Below are positions 9,947 through 61,518 of a DNA stretch of 64,000 nt, piece after piece; the stretch's first letter is position 1; every line of letters starts with the position of its first letter. This DNA comes from Alphaproteobacteria bacterium (GTDB lineage Bacteria > Pseudomonadota > Alphaproteobacteria > SP197), in NCBI GenBank assembly GCA_964291415.2, contig OZ219918.1, positions 704,001 through 768,000 of the forward strand. Direction: 5' to 3'. Made by a program: the position numbers and the translations under genes. A model generated the notes under the pieces. That model was not told the DNA's origin. It worked only from the letters and a program-made list of their open reading frames with translations, and made no database searches.

Positions 9947-10183
9947 CTACCTGAGAACATCCCATTCCGCGAGGTCTGCCGCCGGTGCGACGAGATCGTC
10001 GCGGATCTCGCCGTCGTCCCGCATCGCGCCGAGCCATTCTCCGGCCGGCGATGGCGGCGGCGGCACAATCTGGGCGACCGGCTTGCCGAAACGGGTGACC
10101 AGAACAGGTTTGCGAGACCTTCCCACCCGGTCGAGAACGGCCAGGCAGGTCGCCTTGAACTTCGAAATCTGAATCTCTTCCAT
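9947..10183 (-). CDS. Phd/YefM-family antitoxin
   Basis: ISKFKATCLAVLDRV..PVLVTRFGKPVA; stop abuts the toxin ATG (TAGATG); alternative start 10213. Confidence 0.87.
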   Translation of the reverse strand: MEEIQISKFKATCLAVLDRVGRSRKPVLVTRFGKPVAQIVPPPPSPAGEWLGAMRDDGEIRDDLVAPAADLAEWDVLR

Positions 10184-10390
10184 GGAACTGTTTGTACTAT
10201 GGTCTGAGTCCATGGTCGCAACAATACTGTCGGACGTGATGCGTGCCAGATCATCGGCAGACCGGCTCTCATCACTGCGTCGTGAACGAAGATGTGTCTG
10301 TCGCGCGATCCGGCTTGGAGGACGCCCGACTCCCGCTGTCCGTCAGGGCGCGGTGGCCGCTCTCCCCCTGCTATGCGGCCGGGTCGGTCG

Positions 10391-11944
10391 TCAACGCCGA
10401 ATCAGGGCGGCGGCGATGAAGGCGAGGCCGGGCAGCAGGATGACCAGCAGGGTCCAGTTGCCGTAGCGGGACCACGGCGTGGGGTGTTCGAGGGGGGCGG
10501 GCAGGGCGGCGTCGAGGATGCCGCTGTGGCCGAGCGGCATGCTCGCCACCACCCGGCCAAGGGGATCGATCACTCCGCTGATTCCCGTGTTGGCTACGCG
10601 GACGACGGGAAGCCCCTGTTCCACCGCGCGCAGTCGGGCTGCCTGGAAGTGCTGATAGGGGCCGCTCGATACGCCGAACCATGCGTCGTTGGTGATGTTG
10701 AGGAGCCACCGTGGCGGACGAGCCGGATCCGTGATACCCGTGGAAAAGATGATCTCGTAGCAGATCAGCACGCCGAAGTCCGGCAGGCTCGCCACCTGGA
10801 TCGTGGCCGGTCCCGGGCCCCGTCCCATATCGCGTCGGCCGGGAACGATAGTGTCGATGGGTAGGATTCCGCGCAACGGCACGTACTCCCCGAACGGCAC
10901 CAGGCGGTACTTGTCATGGAGGGTCACAGGTCCCTTGCCGGAGAAGACAAGGAGGCTGTTGCGCGCCTCGAGCGCGCCGTCGGCTCCAGGGACGGCGCGG
11001 ATGGCGCCCGCCATGATGACTCCTCCCGGCGGGGCCGCGGCGGCGAAGGCGGACATAACGGCAGGCTTGCCGAGGAGCGTGTGGGGAATGGCCGCCTCCG
11101 GCCAGATGATGGCAACGGGAGGCTCCCCGGCCGGCGCCAGGGAACTCAGCGCGACCTGGCGGGCAAAGTGGTCCTCGAGGAGCGCCCTCTCCCACTTCAG
11201 GTGCTGTTCGATGTGTGGCTGGACAAGGCGCAACATCGGACCCGGCGAGTTGTCCCTGTTCTGAAGGCGCAGTTCTCCGGCCGCCCAGGCCAGGGCGATG
11301 ACGGCGATGGATACCCCGAGCCCGCCTGCCGCACGTCGGGGAGTGAAGCGGCCGGCCGGCGCCACGGCGGCCGGCGCGAGGCTCGCGACGAGGACGATGG
11401 CGCCCAGCAGCCAGGGCCCGCCCAGGGCGCCCCCCTGGATGAGGCTGTCGGAGAGAGCCAGCGAGGAGCCCACGAGATTCCAAGGGAATCCCGTCAGTAA
11501 CCAGCTGCGAACCCATTCCAGGACCAGCCATGCGACGCCGAGAGCGACGATCCTTGCGCGTCGGCCCGGGATCATGCCGGCGAGGCCCGCCGCCGCCGCC
11601 GGAAAGAGACCGAATCCGGCAGCGATGGCGAGAAGGGCCAGGGGATAGAGCCAGGCGTGCCGCTCCGGATCCACCAGCAGGGCGTTGGCGATCCAGTAGA
11701 ACGCCGCAGCGGAAAATCCGCAGCCGAACCACCAGCCGTCCAGGAAGGCGCCGGCGCCGCGCCGGTGACCGGAGATGAGCCATGCGAGTCCGCTGAAGGC
11801 GACCACGGCGCCCGGCAACAGGTGAAAGGGAGGGAGCGCTGCCGCCAGCACGGCGCCCAGACCAAGGGCCGTCAGCCGGCGGCGCCAGCCGGTGAGGGCG
11901 GTCAGCCGCAGAATGCCATCGCTGTCAACCGCGCTGGCCGGCAC
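10391..11944 (-). CDS. lnt: Apolipoprotein N-acyltransferase
   Basis: LTGFPWN, WPEAA, KYRLVPFGEYVP, LICYE, NITNDAWFG, RVANTGIS. Confidence 0.95.
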   Translation of the reverse strand: MPASAVDSDGILRLTALTGWRRRLTALGLGAVLAAALPPFHLLPGAVVAFSGLAWLISGHRRGAGAFLDGWWFGCGFSAAAFYWIANALLVDPERHAWLYPLALLAIAAGFGLFPAAAAGLAGMIPGRRARIVALGVAWLVLEWVRSWLLTGFPWNLVGSSLALSDSLIQGGALGGPWLLGAIVLVASLAPAAVAPAGRFTPRRAAGGLGVSIAVIALAWAAGELRLQNRDNSPGPMLRLVQPHIEQHLKWERALLEDHFARQVALSSLAPAGEPPVAIIWPEAAIPHTLLGKPAVMSAFAAAAPPGGVIMAGAIRAVPGADGALEARNSLLVFSGKGPVTLHDKYRLVPFGEYVPLRGILPIDTIVPGRRDMGRGPGPATIQVASLPDFGVLICYEIIFSTGITDPARPPRWLLNITNDAWFGVSSGPYQHFQAARLRAVEQGLPVVRVANTGISGVIDPLGRVVASMPLGHSGILDAALPAPLEHPTPWSRYGNWTLLVILLPGLAFIAAALIRR

Positions 11945-12797
11945 GTCTCACGCGCAGACGCTTGATATGCCGTGGATCGGCATCGACGATTTCGAACTCG
12001 AGCCCTGACGCGTGAGCGATGATCTCGCCTCGCATCGGAATGCGGCCGGCCATCGTGTGGACGAGTCCGCCGACGGTGTCGATGTCCTCGTCTCTCGATT
12101 CGTCCTGGAGCGTCGAGCCTGTCATGGCCTCGAGTTCGCTGACCGGCGCGCGGGCATGGGCGTCGACGACGCCGCCGGGCTGCTCGACGAGAAGAACCCC
12201 GTCCTCGGCATCGTGCTCGTCCCAGATTTCGCCGACGATGGGTTCCACGAGGTCCTCGATGGTGGCGAGGCCGTCGATGCCCCCGAATTCGTCGACCACC
12301 AGCGCCAGATGCGTGCGGGCCGTGCGCATCTTGATGAGAAGATCGACCACCGGCATCGACGGGGGAACGAAGAGGACGTCGCGCACCAGGCTGGCAAGGC
12401 TGGGCACCTGCCTGTCCTCGGGCAGTCCCCAGTGATCGAGGAAGTCCCGGACATGGACCATGCCGATCGGGTCGTCGAGGGTCTCGCGGTAGACCGGCAA
12501 CCTGGAGTGTCCGGTATCGCGCATGATCTCGACGACCTCGGCGAGCGTCGTTGCCTCTTCGACGGCGACGATATCGGCATGGGGCACCATGACGTCGTCG
12601 ACCGTGAGCTCGCCGAATCGCAGAAGATTGGACAGCATCGAGCGCTCGGCATCGGAGAACTCCGTCTCGCTGCCGTCGCCGGCCTCGAGAAGCTCCTCGA
12701 CGGACTCCCTCAGGGTGTCGCCGTTGCGGCCGCTGACCAGGCGGCGCAACCAGCCGGCAAGGCCTGAAACCGGTGTCTGGGGCGATCGGTTGTTCAC
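11925..12797 (-). CDS. corC: CBS/CorC-domain hemolysin-family Mg/Co transport protein
   Basis: VMVP, HSRLPVY, VVDEFGGIDGLATIEDL, DTVGGLV; conserved position ybeY-corC-lnt. Confidence 0.9.
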   Translation of the reverse strand: MNNRSPQTPVSGLAGWLRRLVSGRNGDTLRESVEELLEAGDGSETEFSDAERSMLSNLLRFGELTVDDVMVPHADIVAVEEATTLAEVVEIMRDTGHSRLPVYRETLDDPIGMVHVRDFLDHWGLPEDRQVPSLASLVRDVLFVPPSMPVVDLLIKMRTARTHLALVVDEFGGIDGLATIEDLVEPIVGEIWDEHDAEDGVLLVEQPGGVVDAHARAPVSELEAMTGSTLQDESRDEDIDTVGGLVHTMAGRIPMRGEIIAHASGLEFEIVDADPRHIKRLRVRRAGQRG

Positions 12798-13339
12798 GGA
12801 GTGTCCAGGAGGTAGGGGTCGGGGATGCCGAGGGTCTCGAGCACGGCGCGCTCCAAGTCCTCCATCACGCCGGCTTCCACGTCCGTCTCGTGGTCGTAGC
12901 CAAGCAGATGAAGGGTCCCGTGAACGGCGATGTGGGACAGGTGATCGGTGAGTTCCAGGGCCCGGCGGCGCGCCTCGTCGACGACGGTTTCCCGGGCGAT
13001 GACGATGTCGCCCAGGAGAATGTCGCTGCCGGGCGGAGAACCGGCGGGACGCCGCAGCCGCGTCCCCGGGGAGCGGTTGTCGCTGGGGAACGACAGAACG
13101 TCCGTCGGCTGGTCGATGTGCCGCCAGCGGCCGTTGAGATCGGCCAGCATGCGGTCGTTTGCCATGACGACCGCCACGTTGACAGCCTCCCCGGAACAGG
13201 CGAACTGAAGCGCTCTCGTGCAGGCCCGCTCCACGACGTCGTCGGCCCCGGGCAGATCACTCAGCCAGGCCCCGTCCGCGACCGTGACGTCGACATGTGC
13301 CGTCCCGGATCGACTGCAGGCGCCGTCGTCTCCCGTCAT
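12794..13339 (-). CDS. ybeY: rRNA maturation endoribonuclease YbeY
   Basis: PTDVLSFP, LGDIVI, HGTLHLLGYDH. Confidence 0.95.
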   Translation of the reverse strand: MTGDDGACSRSGTAHVDVTVADGAWLSDLPGADDVVERACTRALQFACSGEAVNVAVVMANDRMLADLNGRWRHIDQPTDVLSFPSDNRSPGTRLRRPAGSPPGSDILLGDIVIARETVVDEARRRALELTDHLSHIAVHGTLHLLGYDHETDVEAGVMEDLERAVLETLGIPDPYLLDTP

Positions 13340-14304
13340 GGCGCCTCCCGGCGATCGTCCGCATCCCAGGCGCGGACGATCTTCGCCACGAGCGGGTGCC
13401 GGACGACGTCGACATCGGTGAACCTGACGACCTCGATGTCTTCGACGGATTCGAGGATGCGCACCGCATCCGCCAGTCCGGAAACCTGGCCTCGAGGCAG
13501 GTCGACCTGCGTGAGGTCGCCGGTGACCACCATGCGCGCGTTCTCGCCAAGGCGGGTCAGGAACATCTTCATCTGCATCCGCGAGGTGTTCTGGGCTTCG
13601 TCGAGTATGACAAAGGCGTTGGACAGCGTCCGCCCGCGCATGAAGGCCAGCGGCGCCACCTCGATGTCGTCGGACGCCAAGCGACGATTGGCCTTGTCGG
13701 CCGGCATGGTGTCGTAGAGCGCGTCATAGAGAGGGCGAAGGTACGGGTCGACCTTTTCGCGCAGGTCGCCCGGCAGGAACCCGAGCCGTTCACCGGCTTC
13801 CACCGCCGGACGCGACAACACGATGCGATCCACGTCGCCCGACTCCAGCATGGCGACAGCGACGGCGACGGCAAGATAGGTCTTGCCCGTTCCGGCCGGG
13901 CCAAGCGCGAACACCATGGACGATGACGACAGGGTCTTGAGGTAGCGCGCCTGGTTGAGGGTACGCGGCGTGATGCGCCGCCGCGAGGTTTTCACCACGG
14001 TATTCGAGATCGACGGATCGCCCGCCATGCGGAGCATGGCCTCGACTTCGGCGGGCCCGACCGTGAGACCGTCCTTGAGGCGCCCGTAGAGACCGTTGAG
14101 AACCAGGACGGCCGTTCCGGCCGGTTCCGAAGGCCCGGCAATGCTGACCTGATTGCCGCGGCAGGTCAGCGAGACGCCGAGTTCCTGTTCGATGCGTACG
14201 AGGTGGCAGTCATGCCAGCCGTAGAGGGAGGCCAGCAGGTCGTTGTCCTCGAAGGCCAGAACGCGTGGCGCCGGGGCCTCGTCGCGGACCGGAGGAGACG
14301 TCAT
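13336..14304 (-). CDS. phoH: PhoH-family ATPase (YbeZ)
   Basis: GPAGTGKTYLA, RPAVEAGERLGFLPGD, PLAFMRGRT, DEAQN. Confidence 0.95.
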   Translation of the reverse strand: MTSPPVRDEAPAPRVLAFEDNDLLASLYGWHDCHLVRIEQELGVSLTCRGNQVSIAGPSEPAGTAVLVLNGLYGRLKDGLTVGPAEVEAMLRMAGDPSISNTVVKTSRRRITPRTLNQARYLKTLSSSSMVFALGPAGTGKTYLAVAVAVAMLESGDVDRIVLSRPAVEAGERLGFLPGDLREKVDPYLRPLYDALYDTMPADKANRRLASDDIEVAPLAFMRGRTLSNAFVILDEAQNTSRMQMKMFLTRLGENARMVVTGDLTQVDLPRGQVSGLADAVRILESVEDIEVVRFTDVDVVRHPLVAKIVRAWDADDRREAP

Positions 14305-15638
14305 CAGGCTGCCAGCATCCCGGCCATGCTGTTGGGCCGGGCCTCGGTGAGGGTGACATCCATCAGCGATCCGAGGTGGCGTTCACCGGCATCGACGTGT
14401 ACGGCCTGGAGCCAGGGGCTGCGGCCCACCAGCTGGTGGGAATGCCGCCCCCTTCGCTCGAGAAGCACCGGAACCGTATGGCCGACGGTGGCGCGATTGA
14501 ACGTGTCCTGCTGGTCTCTCAGCAGGCGCTGCAGAATTCCGAGCCTCTCTGCCTTGACGTCGTCGGGCACCTGTCCGTCTGCCGCCGCCGCCGGGGTTCC
14601 GGGGCGCGGGCTGTACTTGAAGGAGAAGGCCGAGGCATAGGCGACATCGCGCACCAGCGAGAGCGTGGCGGCAAAGTCGGCATCGCTTTCGCCGGGGAAG
14701 CCCACGATGAAATCCCCCGATATGGCAATGTCGGGCCGCGCCTCGCGAACGGCCGCGATCACCGCGAGGTAGTCGGCCGTGGTGTGACGCCGGTTCATCG
14801 CCTTCAGAATCCGGTCGCTGCCCGACTGTACAGGCAGGTGGAGGTACGGCATCAGGCTGTCGATCTCGCCATGGGCGCGGATGAGGTCGCCGGACATGTC
14901 CAACGGGTGGGATGTCGTGTACCGGATGCGCCTGAGGCGATCGAGCGATGCCAGTTCGCCGATCAGACGCGCCAGGGTCCATGGTCTGCCGTCGGTGCCC
15001 TCGCCGTGCCACGCATTGACGTTCTGTCCGAGGAGGACGACTTCCACCACGCCCGTTGCCAGCAGTACCCTCGCCTCGTCGAGAATGTCACGGGCCGGCC
15101 GCGAAAACTCCGCACCGCGGGTGTAGGGAACCACGCAGAAGGTGCAGAACTTGTCGCATCCCTCCTGGATCGACAGGAAGGCGACACGACCGGCACCCGG
15201 GCGCCGTGACGGCAGGTCGGTGAAGCGGTCCCGAGCCGGAAAGTCGGTGTCGATCACCGTGCCGCCTTCGTTGGCGTGGCGCGTGATCAGGTCGGGCAGG
15301 CGATGATAGGTCTGGGGTCCGACGATGACATCGACTACGGGTGCCCGCCGGGCCATTTCCTCGCCTTCGGCCTGGGCGACACAACCGGCCACCGCGATCA
15401 TGAGATCGCCGCCGGCCTCGCGTTTGCGCTCCTTGAGCGCGCGCAACCGTCCCAGTTCCGAATAGACCTTCTCGGCGGCCTTTTCACGGATGTGGCAGGT
15501 GTTGAGGACGATCATGTCGGCGTCCTCGGCCGATTCCGTTTCCCGGTAGTCCAGGCGTGCCAGGACATCCGTCATGCGACCGGAGTCGTAGACGTTCATC
15601 TGGCAGCCGTAGGTCTTGACGAAGAGTTTCTTGGACAA
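14304..15638 (-). CDS. miaB: tRNA-2-methylthio-N6-dimethylallyladenosine synthase
   Basis: [27 protein letters not shown] radical-SAM motif, C-terminal TRAM; probable TTG start. Confidence 0.95.
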
Positions 15639-56224: not shown

Positions 56225-57016
56225 TCAGCGAGTCCGCTTGAGCGCCGTCTGGGTGAAGTCGTTGAGATCGAGGTCGGTTCCGAACGTGTAGTCCGTCCAG
56301 TTGAGATCGGTACTCTTCCCGGTGAGATGATTCGTCATCGACAGTTGTCTGGCACGCCAGAAGCGGTCGAGGTAGAGGTTGTAGTCATCGACCACCAGAG
56401 TCTTGAGAAGGGATTCCCTGCGGTCGTAGTACTCGATCCTGACGGTGAGCAGTTCGACCGTGTCGATCCACATCACCTGGCGCGAGTAACCGGAGTCCTC
56501 GAGGGTCGGGAAGCGTTCAATCATGTGGCATGTCAGATCGCCACAGGGTTCCTCACCGAGATGCCGGTAGGTGTATCGTTCGATCTCCGAGGCCCCCATG
56601 TCCTCGTATGAGAATTCGCTTCCCATGAATGAACCCGACTGGTTCGACGAACTGATGCGCTTGACCCTCTCGAGGGCCGGGAGATAGAGCCACTGGTCGT
56701 CCGCCTCGTCCTTGTGGGCGTGGACGAGGAAGGCTGTTCCCTTGACATCGCGCGGCCGGTCGAAAACGAAAATGGTGCGGTCTCCATCGTTCTCGACCTC
56801 GATGACCTTGATGCGGACCTCCCGCGTACTTTCCTCCCCGCGCTTGTTGCGCAGGATCATGCCCATGTTCGCCGTGAAGTTTCCGAATCCCTTCTGGCGT
56901 TCGCGGGCCTCCGTGGCAATACGCAACCCGGCTTCCTCGGGCGTTTCGGCATCGACACGGGACAGTCCCGGAATCCAGGCGGCGGCAAAGGCAACGAGGA
57001 CGAGAATCATGCGCAT
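56225..57016 (-). CDS. Outer-membrane lipoprotein-sorting (LolA-like) protein
   Basis: Signal peptide; PRDVKGTAFL, DDQWLYLPAL.RVKRI, FMGSEFSYED. Confidence 0.85.
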   Translation of the reverse strand: MRMILVLVAFAAAWIPGLSRVDAETPEEAGLRIATEARERQKGFGNFTANMGMILRNKRGEESTREVRIKVIEVENDGDRTIFVFDRPRDVKGTAFLVHAHKDEADDQWLYLPALERVKRISSSNQSGSFMGSEFSYEDMGASEIERYTYRHLGEEPCGDLTCHMIERFPTLEDSGYSRQVMWIDTVELLTVRIEYYDRRESLLKTLVVDDYNLYLDRFWRARQLSMTNHLTGKSTDLNWTDYTFGTDLDLNDFTQTALKRTR

Positions 57017-57430
57017 GGTGGGTTCCTCACTTTCCGTTTCCGGAGCCTGCAGTCCAGGTCGAGTCCGACGAGACGGGAAGGCCGGCGGTCCGTGCATGCG
57101 CGACAACGCTGCCGGACGGCGTCAGGAACCCCTCACTGCCATCGCACAAGCCTGAGGCCATCGAACGCTCCATTCCGTAGAACCATGCCGATCATAGCCC
57201 CAAGACAGTCAAACAAACAGGTGAACGAGAGCCAGACGGGCTTGACCCCTTGACATGACATGCGTTGCCAAACGACCGCATGGCGCCGGCAGCCCAGGCT
57301 CAACAGCCGGCACAGATCCGCACGGATTCGCAGCGCAAGGCACCGTTTGGCACGACACCAGGCTGTTCGGAGCCCGGATCCACAGCGCGCACAGACCGAA
57401 TTCGCGGCCTCCGGATCAACGTCCTCCAGT

Positions 57431-57454
57431 CGGACCGTTCCATCGAGCGGTCCG
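57431..57454. terminator. GC hairpin just downstream of the WYL gene
   Basis: CGGACCGTTC-CATC-GAGCGGTCCG; no clear U-tract. Confidence 0.3.
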
Positions 57455-57462
57455 CAACCCGA

Positions 57463-58491
57463 TCACAGTCGCTGACTGTCCTGGGTTTCGCGTCCGACAG
57501 GGTTGGCTGGTTCGTGATGGAGGGCGAGACGTTGGCACATTGTTGCCAACCTCTTGCGGAGGCGGACGGGCTTCTCGACGATGACGCTGTCGCCCCAGGT
57601 GACGAGGTGCCAGCACATCTCGTCGATGCCGCCCGCCTTGAACTGCACCGTGACCGAACCATCGCCGTTCTCCTCGACCGCCTGGTCCGGGTGAAACAGG
57701 AAGGCTGCAGCATCCCGCGCCGCCCGGGGCAGGAAGCGCAGGACGACCTTGACGGGCCTTTCCTGGAACGTGCCAAAGGAACGCCTGGCGTAGGCCCTCA
57801 AGTCGAACGCCGGATCGCGCTCGAACCGCTCGTCGGCGAGCCGGGCGTCGCTCACGTTCGTGAGACGCCACAGACGCAACTCGCCGGCCCAGTCGGTACG
57901 TCCTACCAGGAAGGCCCGATTGCCGTGGAGCAGGCCATAGGGCTGCACACGTTGGCGGCTTTGCCGTCCCGTCGACTGGGCGATGTAGTGGAATTCCACC
58001 ACACGGCTGGTCACGACGGCCTCGCGCAGGAGCGAGAGAAGGCCGGCGTCGAGGCGTGGTCGGGGCCCAGGACGCATGGCCAGCCCTTCGGCGAGGACCA
58101 GCGCCTCGACGTCCGCCTCAATTCTGTCAAGCGTATGCTGTTGCATCGCGGCACGCAGCTTGCAGGCGATCTCCCGCATCGTCTCAGCCCTTCCGTCGAG
58201 GCCAGCGCGCTCCAGGGCGTCGGCGGCTCCTGCCAGTTCCGCCAGCTCCTCTGCCGAGATGGAGACGAGGCGGCGCAGGGCATCCGAGCGCAATCGCCAG
58301 TGTTTCCTCTTGTCGTCCCGTGGCACGGTTTCCAGAGCTCCGAAGGCCGCTTCGACAGCATCCCGCATGCGCTCTGCCGTCTTCCGGCTGACTTTGAAGT
58401 CATCCTGGATGCCGTCCAGCGTCATGCCGCTGCGCGAGCCCTGCATGCGTATTGCCAGATCGATGATGTCCGTCAGTCGTTCATACCGCAT
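57463..58491 (-). CDS. DriD-like HTH-WYL-WCX transcriptional regulator
   Basis: N-terminal wHTH GMTLD....VSRKTAERMRDAV.AAF, WYL VQPYGLL....FLV...LRLWRL, WCX FLFHPDQ, EMCWHLVTWG. Confidence 0.88.
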   Translation of the reverse strand: MRYERLTDIIDLAIRMQGSRSGMTLDGIQDDFKVSRKTAERMRDAVEAAFGALETVPRDDKRKHWRLRSDALRRLVSISAEELAELAGAADALERAGLDGRAETMREIACKLRAAMQQHTLDRIEADVEALVLAEGLAMRPGPRPRLDAGLLSLLREAVVTSRVVEFHYIAQSTGRQSRQRVQPYGLLHGNRAFLVGRTDWAGELRLWRLTNVSDARLADERFERDPAFDLRAYARRSFGTFQERPVKVVLRFLPRAARDAAAFLFHPDQAVEENGDGSVTVQFKAGGIDEMCWHLVTWGDSVIVEKPVRLRKRLATMCQRLALHHEPANPVGRETQDSQRL

Positions 58492-58563
58492 CGGGATGTT
58501 CCTCGCTGTCCCCGGAGGTTCACTGGCCGGCCACCATGGCGCGACCGATGGGGCGCGACAACC

Positions 58564-60633
58564 TCATCTCAGGAAGCCGATGGTCCGGGGGCGGTGGGGC
58601 TTGGCGGCACACTCGGCACGGAGCATCGCGGCGAGTGCATCCGGTTCCGTGAGGCGTCCCAGAAGGCCAGCCTTACGGCGAACCACCGCAAAGTCGCCAG
58701 GAGTGAGGGCTGTCAGGTCCGAAAAATTCTCCGGCGGAGCGAGTCCGAACAAGGTGTGGAACGCCATGCAAACCTGGGCGGGCGTGAGATAGTCGAGGGA
58801 GACCTTGAAGACGAAACGCCGCAGGGTCGCCGGGTCGAGGTGTTCGCCGAAGTTGGTCGTGCAGGCGAAGGGCAGGGGATGGCTCTCCATCCAGGTCAGC
58901 ATCTCGTTGACCTGGCTGACTTCCCAGTTCCTGTTGGCGAAACGCCGGTCGGCGAGCAGCGAGTCGGCCTCGTCGAACACCAGGAACGCCCCGTCGTCGC
59001 GCGCCTCCGCAAATGCGTCGGCGATCTGCTGCTCCGTCTCTCCGACCCACATCGACATCAGGTCCGAGGCCCGCTTCTGCATCACCTCGAGGCCGAGGCG
59101 TTCGGCAAGGTAGCGGACAAATGCGCTCTTGCCCGTGCCCGGCGGTCCCTGAAGACACAGCGAGAACCGTCGTTCTCCGGACTTGACGAGACGGTCGGCG
59201 AGTTCGCGGGGGTCGGTGTCGGCCTTCAACAGCGCCAGGTCGAAGCGTTCCGGCGTCACCGGAGGGGGAGCATGGCGCCCCATGACGCGGGACAGGCTGC
59301 GTACGCCCAGGCGCACCGTGGCGAGATCGCCGGCACCGAGACGCGCCGCGGCGACGGCACCGGCTGCGACGCCGGGCGTGGCGTCGAACTCACATGCCAG
59401 AGCGCGAGCGTCCCCGGGGCCCGCCGGGATGCGGTAACGCTCGAGTTGACGGGTCCAGATCCTCGTGCGCACCCGGACCGTCGGCGCGCGCATCTCGAAG
59501 GCAAACATCATGCGCCGGAGAACGGCGGGGCTGACGTGTTCCGTGTCGTTCGTGGTCCACAGCGTCGGCGTCGGAGCCTGTTCAAGCAGCCGATGCATGA
59601 ACACCCTTGAGGCCGCTCCGCGCGAACCCGCACGCCGGCGCGGGAGGAAGCCGAGGTCCGGAGCGGCGTTGCCAAGCAGATCCTCCATCTCGTCGAACAT
59701 GAGAAGTGCGCGGTGCTCGCCGGCGAGCAGGCGCTGGACGAGGCGCAACTCCTGGAGCCTCTCGCTCCGGGAGGGTTCGTCGCCACTCTCATCCGATTCC
59801 CCGACGCCGTAGAGCTTTACGCCGAGCCGCTCGGCCAGAACCTTGCAGAACTCGGTCTTGCCGGTTCCCGGCGGTCCGTACAAGAGGATGTTGACGCCCG
59901 GCGCGCGGGTATCGAGCGCGCCCTTGATCAGCGTCTCGACGTGGTCTCGGTCGCCGGCGACATGGTCGAAGTCGGTCCAGTCGAGATCGCTCGCGAGCGC
60001 AGGATCGAGCAGCAGGCTGGCGACATCGCGATCCGAATCGCCCTGCGCGTAGACGAGTTGTCTCAGCCGTTTCAGCATCATCACTTCGCCGTCGTCGCGG
60101 TCGATGGAGACGAGTCCCGACCGGACGAGAGGGGCGTCGGCCTCGAGCCGTCTCGCGATCGCGTTGGGCGAGCGGCCGAGAAGCACTGGCAGGATCCGCC
60201 CTCCGAGGGAGAAGACGGGTCCGCTGTCCAAGGAACCCTCGAAGATGTCGTCGATCATCGACTCGAACACCGGCCGGGTCCAGTAACGCAACAGGACTTC
60301 CAGGATGGCGACGTCGGTGGGCGAAAGGCCGGCCGAGTGCCCGAGACGCCGGAGGCGTCGCGCGACCCGGTCCGGTCTCACCCTGCGGTTCGCGCATTCC
60401 TCGCGCAGGGTGGCGCCGAGATTGCGGAATCGCCGGGCGGTCAACTCGTCGTCACAGTCGAACTCCCGGCGGCGTCTGCGTGAGCGCCGGCTCTCGCGTC
60501 CACGCGCGATAAGGCTCTCCCTGTCGGTCACCCACATGGCCAGCGCCGTCGCCTCTGGATCCCGATGGGAGAGACGCGATGCGGCGTTCGCCAGGTAAAG
60601 CGCCAGCAGGCGATGTTCGTAAGCGGTCAGCAT
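58564..60633 (-). CDS. Tandem (D1-D2) AAA+ ATPase with uncharacterised N-terminal domain
   Basis: GPPGTGKT/LLMFDE/TTN..LRR and GPPGTGKS/LVFDEAD/TTN..DPATLRRF; C-terminal IGF; GGAGG RBS. Confidence 0.9.
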   Translation of the reverse strand: MLTAYEHRLLALYLANAASRLSHRDPEATALAMWVTDRESLIARGRESRRSRRRRREFDCDDELTARRFRNLGATLREECANRRVRPDRVARRLRRLGHSAGLSPTDVAILEVLLRYWTRPVFESMIDDIFEGSLDSGPVFSLGGRILPVLLGRSPNAIARRLEADAPLVRSGLVSIDRDDGEVMMLKRLRQLVYAQGDSDRDVASLLLDPALASDLDWTDFDHVAGDRDHVETLIKGALDTRAPGVNILLYGPPGTGKTEFCKVLAERLGVKLYGVGESDESGDEPSRSERLQELRLVQRLLAGEHRALLMFDEMEDLLGNAAPDLGFLPRRRAGSRGAASRVFMHRLLEQAPTPTLWTTNDTEHVSPAVLRRMMFAFEMRAPTVRVRTRIWTRQLERYRIPAGPGDARALACEFDATPGVAAGAVAAARLGAGDLATVRLGVRSLSRVMGRHAPPPVTPERFDLALLKADTDPRELADRLVKSGERRFSLCLQGPPGTGKSAFVRYLAERLGLEVMQKRASDLMSMWVGETEQQIADAFAEARDDGAFLVFDEADSLLADRRFANRNWEVSQVNEMLTWMESHPLPFACTTNFGEHLDPATLRRFVFKVSLDYLTPAQVCMAFHTLFGLAPPENFSDLTALTPGDFAVVRRKAGLLGRLTEPDALAAMLRAECAAKPHRPRTIGFLR

Positions 60634-60664
60634 GGCGTTCCCTCCGTTCCGTCAAGTCGGAGGA

Positions 60665-60699
60665 AATGTAACCGGCCACGACGTCATATCCGGTCGTAT
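60665..60699 (-). promoter_or_regulatory. Putative WYL-activator (DriD/PafBC-type) operator plus -10 box
   Basis: Minus strand reads ATACGAC-CGGATAT-GACGTCG then TACATT; TGACGT-N10-TACATT spacing. Confidence 0.6.
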
Positions 60700-61092
60700 T
60701 GGGGGAGTCTTTCTTCGACGTGGACGAGACCGGTCCGCTCTGTGCGGCAAGCGGTCAGGGGCAGTCACTCGCTTGATCGACGAACCTCTCCAGAATGTCG
60801 AGAAACTCCGGATCATCATGAACATCGCGGGCAACAACACCGACGTGCCGCCCAGCCCTCAAGCTCCCGTCGCGTCATCGCAGCTTCATCCTGGCAGGAT
60901 CCGGTTCAGTATCCCCGGACCGGTTTGGTGACATTGACACGTGGCTCGCCACGCATGAATCGGCCGGGATTGTCCAGAAAGACCCTGACGGCGGCGGTCG
61001 GACGTCTACGCAAGCATGGAATGACATCTGGAATCCGGTCTTCGGTTGTCCCAATCTTCAGGACAGCCGTTGTTCCATTGGGAGAATCGATC

Positions 61093-61518
61093 ATGGACGG
61101 GTCAGCCTACGCCGGTGACGTCATGCCTGCTGATGCCTTCGCCGCCCTCGAAAATGACGAGGACGCCGTTCTCATTGACGTGCGCACGGAAGCTGAATGG
61201 CGCTTTGTCGGGGTGCCGGACCTCTCGGGCCTGGGCAAGAGAACGAGATTCGTCGAGTGGCAGCTCTATCCCGACGGCCGGCCCAATCCGGCGTTCGCGA
61301 GACAGTGCGGGGAACAGGGTCTCGAGAAGGGGAGGGCGGTCTACTTCCTGTGCCGCTCCGGCGTACGCTCCATGCATGCAGCGATCGCCATGACATCGCT
61401 GGGCTACGGTCCCTGCTACAACGTGGCGGAGGGATTCGAAGGCGACAAGGATGCATCGATGCAGCGGGGCCGGCTTGGCGGCTGGAAGGTCCGCGGTTTG
61501 CCCTGGCGTCAGGAATAG
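61093..61518 (+). CDS. Rhodanese-like domain protein
   Basis: LIDVRTEAEW.FVGVP, FLCRSGVRS, YNVAEGFEG, GWKVRGLPW. Confidence 0.9.
   Translation: MDGSAYAGDVMPADAFAALENDEDAVLIDVRTEAEWRFVGVPDLSGLGKRTRFVEWQLYPDGRPNPAFARQCGEQGLEKGRAVYFLCRSGVRSMHAAIAMTSLGYGPCYNVAEGFEGDKDASMQRGRLGGWKVRGLPWRQE

Follow-up and report, generated by a model that had tools for sequence, protein, structure and literature searches.

A DriD-like WYL regulator and a tandem AAA+ ATPase carried as a two-gene cassette behind a DriD-type box in an alphaproteobacterial genome

A 64,000-nucleotide stretch of DNA from Alphaproteobacteria bacterium (GTDB lineage SP197; GenBank assembly GCA_964291415.2, contig OZ219918.1, positions 704,001 to 768,000 of the forward strand; hereafter the window), carries the gene of a tandem classical AAA+ ATPase (protein P0001) and, downstream of it on the same minus strand, the gene of a DriD-like WYL regulator (P0002). 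The pair is a self-contained, horizontally mobile two-gene cassette of 3.4 kb, and the wiring that leads from a DriD-type sensor through a DriD-type box to the ATPase gene is well supported. The balance of the evidence leans towards a mobile operon in which a DriD-type regulator activated by single-stranded DNA (ssDNA) would switch on a protein unfoldase by way of the box. A sequence-only reading of the window had pointed to two co-oriented genes 72 bp apart among unrelated flanks; the open reading frames (ORFs), the spacer and the LolA-like and rhodanese neighbours all agree with that description. As a whole its observation was confirmed, and its interpretation is supported as far as computation reaches. 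The features discussed are collected in Table 1.

Table 1. Coordinates within the window of the gene pair, its domains, its upstream signals and its flanking genes.
Feature	Position	Strand	Details
Tandem classical AAA+ ATPase gene, P0001, 689 aa	58564..60633	-	ORF list, Pfam; stop included
DriD-like regulator gene, P0002, 342 aa (winged helix-turn-helix, three-helix bundle, WYL, WCX)	57463..58491	-	Pfam; stop included
Intergenic spacer ATPase/regulator, 72 bp	58492..58563	-	sequence
DriD-type box ATACGAC-cggatat-GACGTCG, core CGAC-N7-GACG	60679..60699	-	at the place of a -35 element, 66 nt before the ATPase ATG
-10-like octamer GTTACATT	60665..60672	-	hexamer TACATT 60665-60670; 6 nt past the box
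Inverted repeat UCCUCCG ... CGGAGGGA, Shine-Dalgarno in 3' arm	60639..60664	-	60664-60658 pairs with 60646-60639
N-domain, residues 1-215, helical part and winged helix	59989..60633	-	model pLDDT 88.9
Arg-rich tract RRSRRRRR, residues 49-56	60466..60489	-	low-confidence loop
Winged-helix fold in N-domain, residues 88-198	60040..60372	-	VIA-align Z 4.3-6.1
D1 AAA module, about residues 245-455	59269..59901	-	Walker A 253-260, Walker B D314-E315, N362, R373/R374
D2 AAA module, about residues 488-689	58567..59172	-	Walker A 496-503, SMWVGE 527-532, D554-E555, N594, R605/R606
LolA-like lipoprotein gene	56225-57106	-	flank
Rhodanese-domain ORF, 317 aa, domain at residues 190-293 only	60565-61518	+	flank

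The second gene had been read from the sequence as encoding an HTH-WYL-WCX protein with a DriD-like N-terminus. Pfam confirmed the WYL (residues 151-217) and WCX (residues 246-323) domains, and the homology to DriD extends over the full length, residues 1-315 of P0002 aligning to residues 1-313 of Caulobacter crescentus DriD (PDB 8tp8, 9pfq) with an E value of 1.8e-59. PafBC was the next PDB family (E 1.8e-4), and no CapW or BrxR chain occurred among the eight PDB matches of P0002 at E <= 1. P0002 is the sole protein of its kind in the 4.44-Mb genome. The available part of PMC10853764 names R37, E40 and R41 as the base-reading residues of DriD; the recognition helix of P0002 has K37, E40 and R41, a single conservative change, and among 30 relatives R37 is the usual residue and R41 is invariant. 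The ssDNA-contact residues of the WYL/WCX pocket are listed in the same part of that paper, and of 11 such contacts in the alignment six are identical in P0002 (Y168, S172, R178, R204, W206 and R207), two are Tyr-to-Phe changes and three are changed.

The available parts of PMC13004042 and PMC10853764 report that DriD recognizes the site ATACGAC-N7-GTCGTAT, with the core CGNC-N7-GNCG, over the -35 position of promoters lacking a -35 consensus. The promoter region of the ATPase gene has the same arrangement: a box of this type stands at the -35 position, a -35 consensus is absent upstream of the gene, and a scan with the sigma-70 consensus finds no promoter there. The -10-like octamer agrees at six of eight positions with GCtANAWC, the -10 consensus that PMC13004042 gives for Caulobacter, and a TAnnnT-like element recurs at the same offset in relatives. 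The DriD-activated CCNA_03891 promoter oligo shown in the available part of PMC13004042 has the same layout from box to -10 element. The presence of a DriD-type box at this position, here and in relatives, bears out the computable part of the regulatory wiring that had been proposed.

The pattern used to find boxes was widened to ATACGWC-N7-GWCGTAT after the first matches had been seen. The window box has two mismatches to it, and at this tolerance (<=2 mismatches) the pattern gave 12 sites in the 4.44-Mb genome versus 9 in the reversed control; the Caulobacter pattern with <=3 mismatches gave 55 sites versus 48. When a matrix made from other loci only was used, the window box ranked first in the genome, with a score of 19.6 versus 13.1 for the next site. 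Seven of the other 11 genomic sites with <=2 mismatches lie inside ORFs; of two intergenic sites that were checked, one lies before a homocysteine S-methyltransferase gene and the other before an ORF without a family. No wider regulon is claimed, because no DNA-repair target was seen among the box sites of this genome. P0002 looks like a local rather than a global regulator, since the matrix scan of the genome found no second strong site.

Conservation of the box was followed in two sets of loci. The first set comprised 31 loci of the ATPase family, 29 of them with upstream sequence; a scan of contigs with the Walker A peptide had given about 18 family members among the matches listed (80 loci), and the others were dropped before the counts were made. 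Within 100 nt upstream, a box with <=2 mismatches lies 34-72 nt before the ATPase start in 7 of the 29 loci, and in two further loci it precedes a small ORF that lies before the ATPase; the first set holds 16 box sites in total in 402,875 nt. The pattern was fixed before the second set was examined; of its 17 new loci, 12 belong to the genus and 5 to plasmids, and 10 of the 17 have the box no more than 100 nt before the ATPase. In the four closest relatives, whose ATPases are 81-89% identical, the box is perfectly palindromic, CTACGWC-N7-GACGTAG, and stands at exactly -66. In the group with 63-64% identity the box reads ATGCGAC-N7-GACGTAy at -64, and in that with 54-57% identity ATGCGTC-N7-GACGCAT at -68 to -70. 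Boxes before the ATPase also occur in a 47-50% relative, on Rhodobacterales plasmids, in an AT-rich genome and in two betaproteobacterial metagenome-assembled genomes, Duodenibacillus and Polaromonas.

Linkage of the two genes, which the sequence-only reading had wished to see followed across genomes, is conserved in distant lineages. A WYL gene lies in the flanks of the ATPase gene in 16 of the 31 first-set loci and 13 of the 17 second-set loci; it may be downstream and co-directional, upstream or divergent, and up to 5.7 kb off. The profiles used for WYL genes and for metallo-beta-lactamase (MBL)-fold genes were built from the same loci, and Pfam was used to check seven of the WYL and three of the MBL examples. 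Among 301 genomes sampled evenly from the class (ATPase at E <= 1e-30, DriD-like protein at E <= 1e-25), 14 had the ATPase and 30 a DriD-like gene. Ten genomes, versus about 1.4 expected, contain both genes, which are <=4 kb apart in nine of the ten.

The distribution at close range shows that the pair moves as a unit. The ATPase is present in 11 of 22 other genomes of the genus, some of which have two divergent copies, and in none of 10 genomes from other genera of the order. The site that the pair occupies in the window also holds it in three relatives. In another relative (G317) only 57465-60815 of the window is shared, in a different context, and in the empty site of a further one (G324) the flanks are adjacent, with 283 unrelated bases in place of window positions 57018-61020. 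The G+C content is 0.66-0.69 over the gene pair versus 0.60-0.62 alongside. No convincing terminal repeats and no integrase were found at the cassette ends. Relatives of the ATPase occur in nine plasmid records and, at E <= 1e-30, in no phage record. Two genomes of the genus, G313 and G323, have two divergent ATPase copies, with identities to the window protein of, for example, 89% and 64%, and one of the copies in G323 is broken into pieces. At two loci, L100 (contig C37 of genome G243) and L044, the WYL gene beside the ATPase is split across two reading frames and is for that reason probably frameshifted; at L100 no box with <=2 mismatches is left upstream of the ATPase.

The 689-aa ATPase has two complete AAA modules, as the sequence-only reading had stated. 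Pfam finds two PF00004 stretches, and the Walker A motifs (GPPGTGKT in D1, GPPGTGKS in D2), the sensor-1 asparagines (N362, N594) and the arginine pairs (R373/R374, R605/R606) are present in both. Across 57 relatives with 37-87% identity, the Walker A and B, sensor-1 and arginine-pair residues show little or no variation in either module, with K259, K502, N362, N594, R374, R605, R606, D554 and E555 invariant. The aromatic pore loop described for D2 is also there: SMWVGE contains MWVG at 528-531, with G531 invariant in the same relatives. An aromatic-hydrophobic-Gly loop of this kind is typical of protein translocases. The D1 loop, LYGVGESDESGDEP (274-287), had been called acidic and non-aromatic; it is acidic, but it contains YGVG, whose aromatic Y275 is one position off the canonical place and is Y, F or H in relatives.

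The fold points the same way. The full-length model of P0001 has a predicted local distance difference test (pLDDT) value of 86.1, and its best Foldseek matches are NVL, Rix7, Cdc48/p97 and Afg2 (E about 1e-16, 500-580 columns, both modules), in agreement with the Cdc48-like character that had been suggested; PDB profile matches of D2 (residues 493-614) are Cdc48, VCP and NVL. By sequence and fold, both modules belong to the classical clade with Cdc48, NVL, Rix7, Afg2 and Vps4, the characterised members of which, to our knowledge, thread polypeptides. Sequence and model together strongly suggest that P0001 works like a type II classical AAA+ protein unfoldase. The N-domain has a helical part and a winged helix, the latter matched in VIA-align by MarR, Fur/PerR, TFE, RuvB and BrxC with weak scores and a consistent fold class. 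Foldseek found nothing for the N-domain model at E <= 0.001, Pfam gave no match below E 0.09, and the PF22977 WHD assignment carried by 11% of one Atlas cluster was not confirmed by Pfam on P0001. The Arg-rich tract noticed earlier is present within a block (residues 41-60) with pLDDT 54-66, and a basic tract is conserved in close relatives only.

A search of cluster representatives at E <= 1e-30 gave 3380 members of the ATPase family, uniform in length, which their source annotates as 'AAA family ATPase' and nothing more. PADLOC-DB 2.0, the 2023 library used as the defence screen, contains no full-length match to the ATPase, with partial P-loop or generic D2 matches only, and no NCBIfam model fits P0001 beyond a generic D2 match. 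Two candidate identities were rejected. P0001 is not a Cdc48 orthologue; it scores 58.9 versus a cut-off of 802.65 with the NCBIfam CDC48 model TIGR01243, and its N-domain is not of the Cdc48 type. It is not IetA either, since the IetA/IteA model NF042959 gives 91 bits versus a cut-off of 510, on D2 only, and the neighbours are LolA-like and rhodanese ORFs, with no IetS protease. IetS is a subtilase. At one locus of the same genus (L099, genome G210, 10145-14854, plus strand) a 1569-aa ORF with PKD and Ig repeats and a subtilase (S8) domain follows the ATPase; it is probably an unrelated secreted protein.

The sequence-only reading had found no protease or nuclease gene next to the pair. This holds for the 64-kb window but not for other loci, where MBL-fold or PD-(D/E)XK nucleases recur beside the ATPase. 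An MBL-fold, RNase J/beta-CASP-like nuclease (PF12706, PF07521, PF22505) adjoins it in 5 of 31 loci (L017, L100, L105, L107 and L109). On the Fuscovulum blasticum plasmid pRsa (L117) and a Leisingera thetidis plasmid (L118), the genes stand in the order ATPase, WYL, ADP-ribosylglycohydrolase, in part a HEPN protein, then PD-(D/E)XK nuclease and UvrD-type helicase. In plasmids of Croceicoccus and Sphingobium the gene after the ATPase encodes a PD-(D/E)XK nuclease, amid SbcCD, HEPN, ParDE and RecB-like genes. The neighbours of WYL-less loci are housekeeping genes. Ten small ORFs beside the ATPase elsewhere were scanned, of which eight had no Pfam family, one was GGACT-like and one resembled uracil-DNA glycosylase below the Pfam cut-off. 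This mixture fits a DNA-damage role or a defence role alike. At L105 a DriD-type box precedes the MBL-fold nuclease gene. A second DriD-type box stands just before the ADP-ribosylglycohydrolase gene or operon on L117 and L118, and this position suggests a larger regulon on these two plasmids.

Taken together, these data are best accommodated by a cassette that would work as follows. By analogy with DriD, ssDNA that arises when DNA is damaged or when foreign DNA replicates would bind the WYL/WCX pocket of a homodimeric regulator, and binding would free the winged-helix heads to bind the CGAC-N7-GACG box. The box would stand in for the -35 element, RNA polymerase would be recruited and both genes would be transcribed; transcription of the regulator gene along with that of the ATPase would provide positive feedback on the regulator. 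The product would be a classical AAA+ hexamer of two rings, in which both ATPase sites are competent and D2 provides an aromatic pore loop, able to thread and unfold a protein client, which the helical and winged-helix N-domain may select, unless that domain positions the machine on DNA. The most likely role would be the clearing or remodelling of DNA-bound proteins under ssDNA stress. It may serve DNA-damage tolerance or defence against mobile DNA.

Several observations weigh against this proposal. P0002 does not keep R176, R189 and R288 of the DriD ssDNA pocket (R176Q, R189N with an Arg next door, R288D), and of the four DriD residues that touch RNA polymerase and were mutated in PMC13004042 (R121, R122, P125 and E128), only R122 and E128 are kept. 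A repressor would occupy the same site as an activator. The downstream half-site of the window box is imperfect (GACGTCG), and matrix scores in the reversed-genome control reach 18.2-18.9; the score alone is not unique, and because the control comes up to 18.9 the case for the box rests on position and conservation. The 27 box-bearing loci represent roughly 8 lineages and are not fully independent, and many ATPase loci have no box. About half of the ATPase loci have no nearby WYL gene, and 4 of the 14 ATPase-positive genomes of the class sample have no DriD-like gene detectable by the query used. The winged-helix match in the N-domain is weak (Z about 6 or less). The sole RNA run consists of unstranded contigs of relatives, from which no start, strand or operon structure can be read; the contigs come from one metatranscriptome (a small share of words) and from DNA runs.

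Among other explanations, the one that carries most weight, unlikely as we hold it to be, makes the WYL protein a CapW- or BrxR-like repressor that is released by ssDNA from phage or plasmid replication, and the ATPase a protective or abortive anti-phage effector unfolding a phage or host protein. The genes do behave as a cassette, with a patchy presence in the genus (11 of 22 genomes, of which some have a second, divergent copy), MBL-fold nuclease neighbours in 5 of 31 loci, and plasmid copies adjoining HEPN, ParDE, PD-(D/E)XK, AddAB-like, SbcCD and ADP-ribosylglycohydrolase genes. IetA is the PADLOC model most like D2, WYL regulators of defence systems are established according to the available parts of PMC9122601 and PMC11662680, and the DriD relative DdaA governs repair and defence genes alike in the available part of PMC12392091. 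Yet the PADLOC models cover only the generic D2 module, the neighbours in the window and at several WYL-less loci are housekeeping genes with no defence island, and no relative was found in phage records at E <= 1e-30. Among solved WYL proteins, the activator DriD is also by far the nearest to P0002, and the ATPase promoter is without a -35 element, like activator-dependent DriD promoters. A closed loop, in which the ATPase would act on its own regulator by stripping or unfolding the ssDNA-bound WYL dimer and so reset the switch with no outside client, is very unlikely. It would suit two genes that travel together and a regulator without another strong site in the genome (13.1 versus 19.6), but no computation favours contact between the two proteins, no WYL gene is near the ATPase in about half of its loci, and DriD-like regulators work without the ATPase, given that 20 of the 30 genomes positive for such a regulator have no ATPase. 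A complex prediction of the ATPase N-domain (225 aa) with the regulator scored 0.00, which gives no verdict and is not evidence either way.

Little credence can be given to a nucleic-acid motor, that is, a RuvB-, MCM- or Orc-like AAA+ protein with a winged helix acting on damaged DNA and not on protein. The winged helix of the N-domain, with RuvB and BrxC winged helices among its matches, the Arg-rich tract and the frequent nuclease neighbours would be compatible with such a motor; the placement of both modules in the classical clade by sequence and fold, and the D2 loop MWVG typical of protein translocases, argue for a protein substrate instead. Least probable of all is a linkage without functional meaning, in which the ATPase would be a general proteostasis chaperone that merely lies beside a DNA-damage regulator. 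The ATPase is found alone among housekeeping genes as well, but a box in its promoter in about 8 lineages, co-occurrence in 10 genomes versus about 1.4 expected and the movement of the two genes as one cassette already disfavour this explanation.

The remaining features of the locus concern the leader, the spacer and the flanks. An inverted repeat lies directly after the -10 element of the ATPase gene. As single sequences, the leaders have z-scores of -1.5 in the window and -1.4 to -6.1 in seven relatives, and repeats of differing sequence occupy the same place at L099, L101, L104, L118, L122-L125, L128, L131 and L013. RNAalifold kept six pairs on the leader, four with compensatory changes, from an imperfect alignment. 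The predicted transcript start, at about 60658, is the end of the 5' arm, and for this reason transcripts from the sensor promoter may miss the anti-Shine-Dalgarno arm. Read-through transcripts would contain it, and fold-back of these could possibly insulate the cassette. Such an arrangement would resemble the fold-back inhibition of IS10 transposase mRNA.

The spacer between the two genes has no terminator-like site and is kept in relatives with 81-89% identity. In the window and at L122-L126, L128, L104 and L117 it contains a short G+C-rich hairpin, for example GCCA-tgg-TGGC, without a U-tract, which may be a processing or attenuation signal. On the other side of the pair, the rhodanese-domain ORF overlaps the ATPase start by 69 nt. 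Homology between cassette-less relatives and the rhodanese side starts again only at 61021, and the true start of the rhodanese gene is on this account probably later than 60565.

WYL regulators of the DriD, DdaA and PafBC types are emerging as the main non-SOS route for reading DNA damage in bacteria, and the outputs known for them are nucleases, enzymes of repair, inhibitors of division and defence systems. If the proposal is true, a conserved unfoldase output would add a proteostasis arm to this non-SOS pathway in Proteobacteria and beyond, in parallel to the actinobacterial link between PafBC and the proteasome and to the role of eukaryotic p97 at damaged chromatin. A broader idea, which we put forward as doubtful, is that a widespread mobile cassette of ssDNA alarm and p97-like unfoldase could be a new bacterial stress or conflict effector that removes DNA-bound host or invader proteins, with nucleases as optional add-ons under the same box and with a leader repeat that blocks translation of transcripts starting elsewhere. 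The proposal of an unfoldase output is directly testable, because the cassette is small, self-contained and provided with a predicted operator.

The sequence-only reading knew of no characterised system with this layout, and neither PADLOC-DB 2.0 nor NCBIfam offers a fit; the main texts of the searchable literature contain no paper linking this ATPase with a WYL gene. For WYL, AAA ATPase and DNA damage, only a proteasome review and a pipolin preprint were returned, neither of which links the pair; for WYL and Cdc48-type AAA+ proteins the sole microbial match concerns different, CoCoNuT-linked ATPases, and for DriD and AAA nothing relevant was among the matches listed. The words 'ATPase' and 'AAA' are absent from the main text of the DriD papers PMC9186387, PMC13004042 and PMC12340889, and an AAA ATPase has no mention in the main text of the DdaA papers PMC12392091 and PMC13010146.

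Compared with known systems, CapW and BrxR, the repressors of CBASS and BREX, share the winged helix-turn-helix, WYL and WCX architecture, ssDNA sensing and a place beside a mobile accessory gene, according to the available part of PMC11662680. They are repressors, however, and P0001 belongs to no listed defence system. Of the PADLOC and NCBIfam models, that of IetA from the IetAS system fits the D2 module best, but the match covers about 130 D2 residues, the IetA models are single-module (about 260-395 positions) and no IetS-type protease gene adjoins P0001. The type II proteins Cdc48/p97, NVL/Rix7, Afg2/Drg1 and VAT have two stacked classical AAA modules with catalytic residues, like P0001; identity to them is about 18-20%, the D1 loop of P0001 is acidic with its aromatic residue shifted by one, and its helical and winged-helix N-domain differs from that of Cdc48. 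In actinobacteria PafBC is a WYL damage activator genetically tied to an ATP-dependent unfolding machine, the Pup-proteasome (available parts of PMC9186387 and PMC8223512). PafBC is a heterodimer or fusion and matches P0002 weakly (E 1.8e-4), and its locus has a proteasome, whereas no proteasome or protease gene adjoins the window pair. Mpa/ARC is a single-module ATPase that feeds the proteasome. DdaA of Moraxellaceae is a DriD-related WYL activator with a similar palindromic box that drives repair and defence genes (PMC12392091, available part); its box differs (CGWCA-N5-TGWCG) and its regulon is described there as global, with up to 20 genes.

DriD itself, of the SOS-independent DNA-damage response of Caulobacter crescentus (8TP8, 7TZV, 9PFQ), is like P0002 in its winged helix-turn-helix, three-helix bundle, WYL and WCX domains, and its CGNC-N7-GNCG box, with an A/T-leaning spacer, lies over the -35 position of a -35-less promoter, as here. 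The targets named for it in the available text are didA, recA, recJ, bapE, dnaG, CCNA_02375 and CCNA_03891/01149. In Caulobacter driD faces a TonB-transporter operon (PMC12340889, available part), whereas here the regulator pairs with an ATPase gene. The available part of PMC10853764 places the box of DriD homologues about 17 nt before the regulator's own start in 68 of 69 cases; unlike in these homologues, the ATPase gene here lies between the box and the regulator gene. Overall, DriD-type sensing is already known, and the unfoldase output proposed for this uncharacterised ATPase would be new as far as the main texts show.

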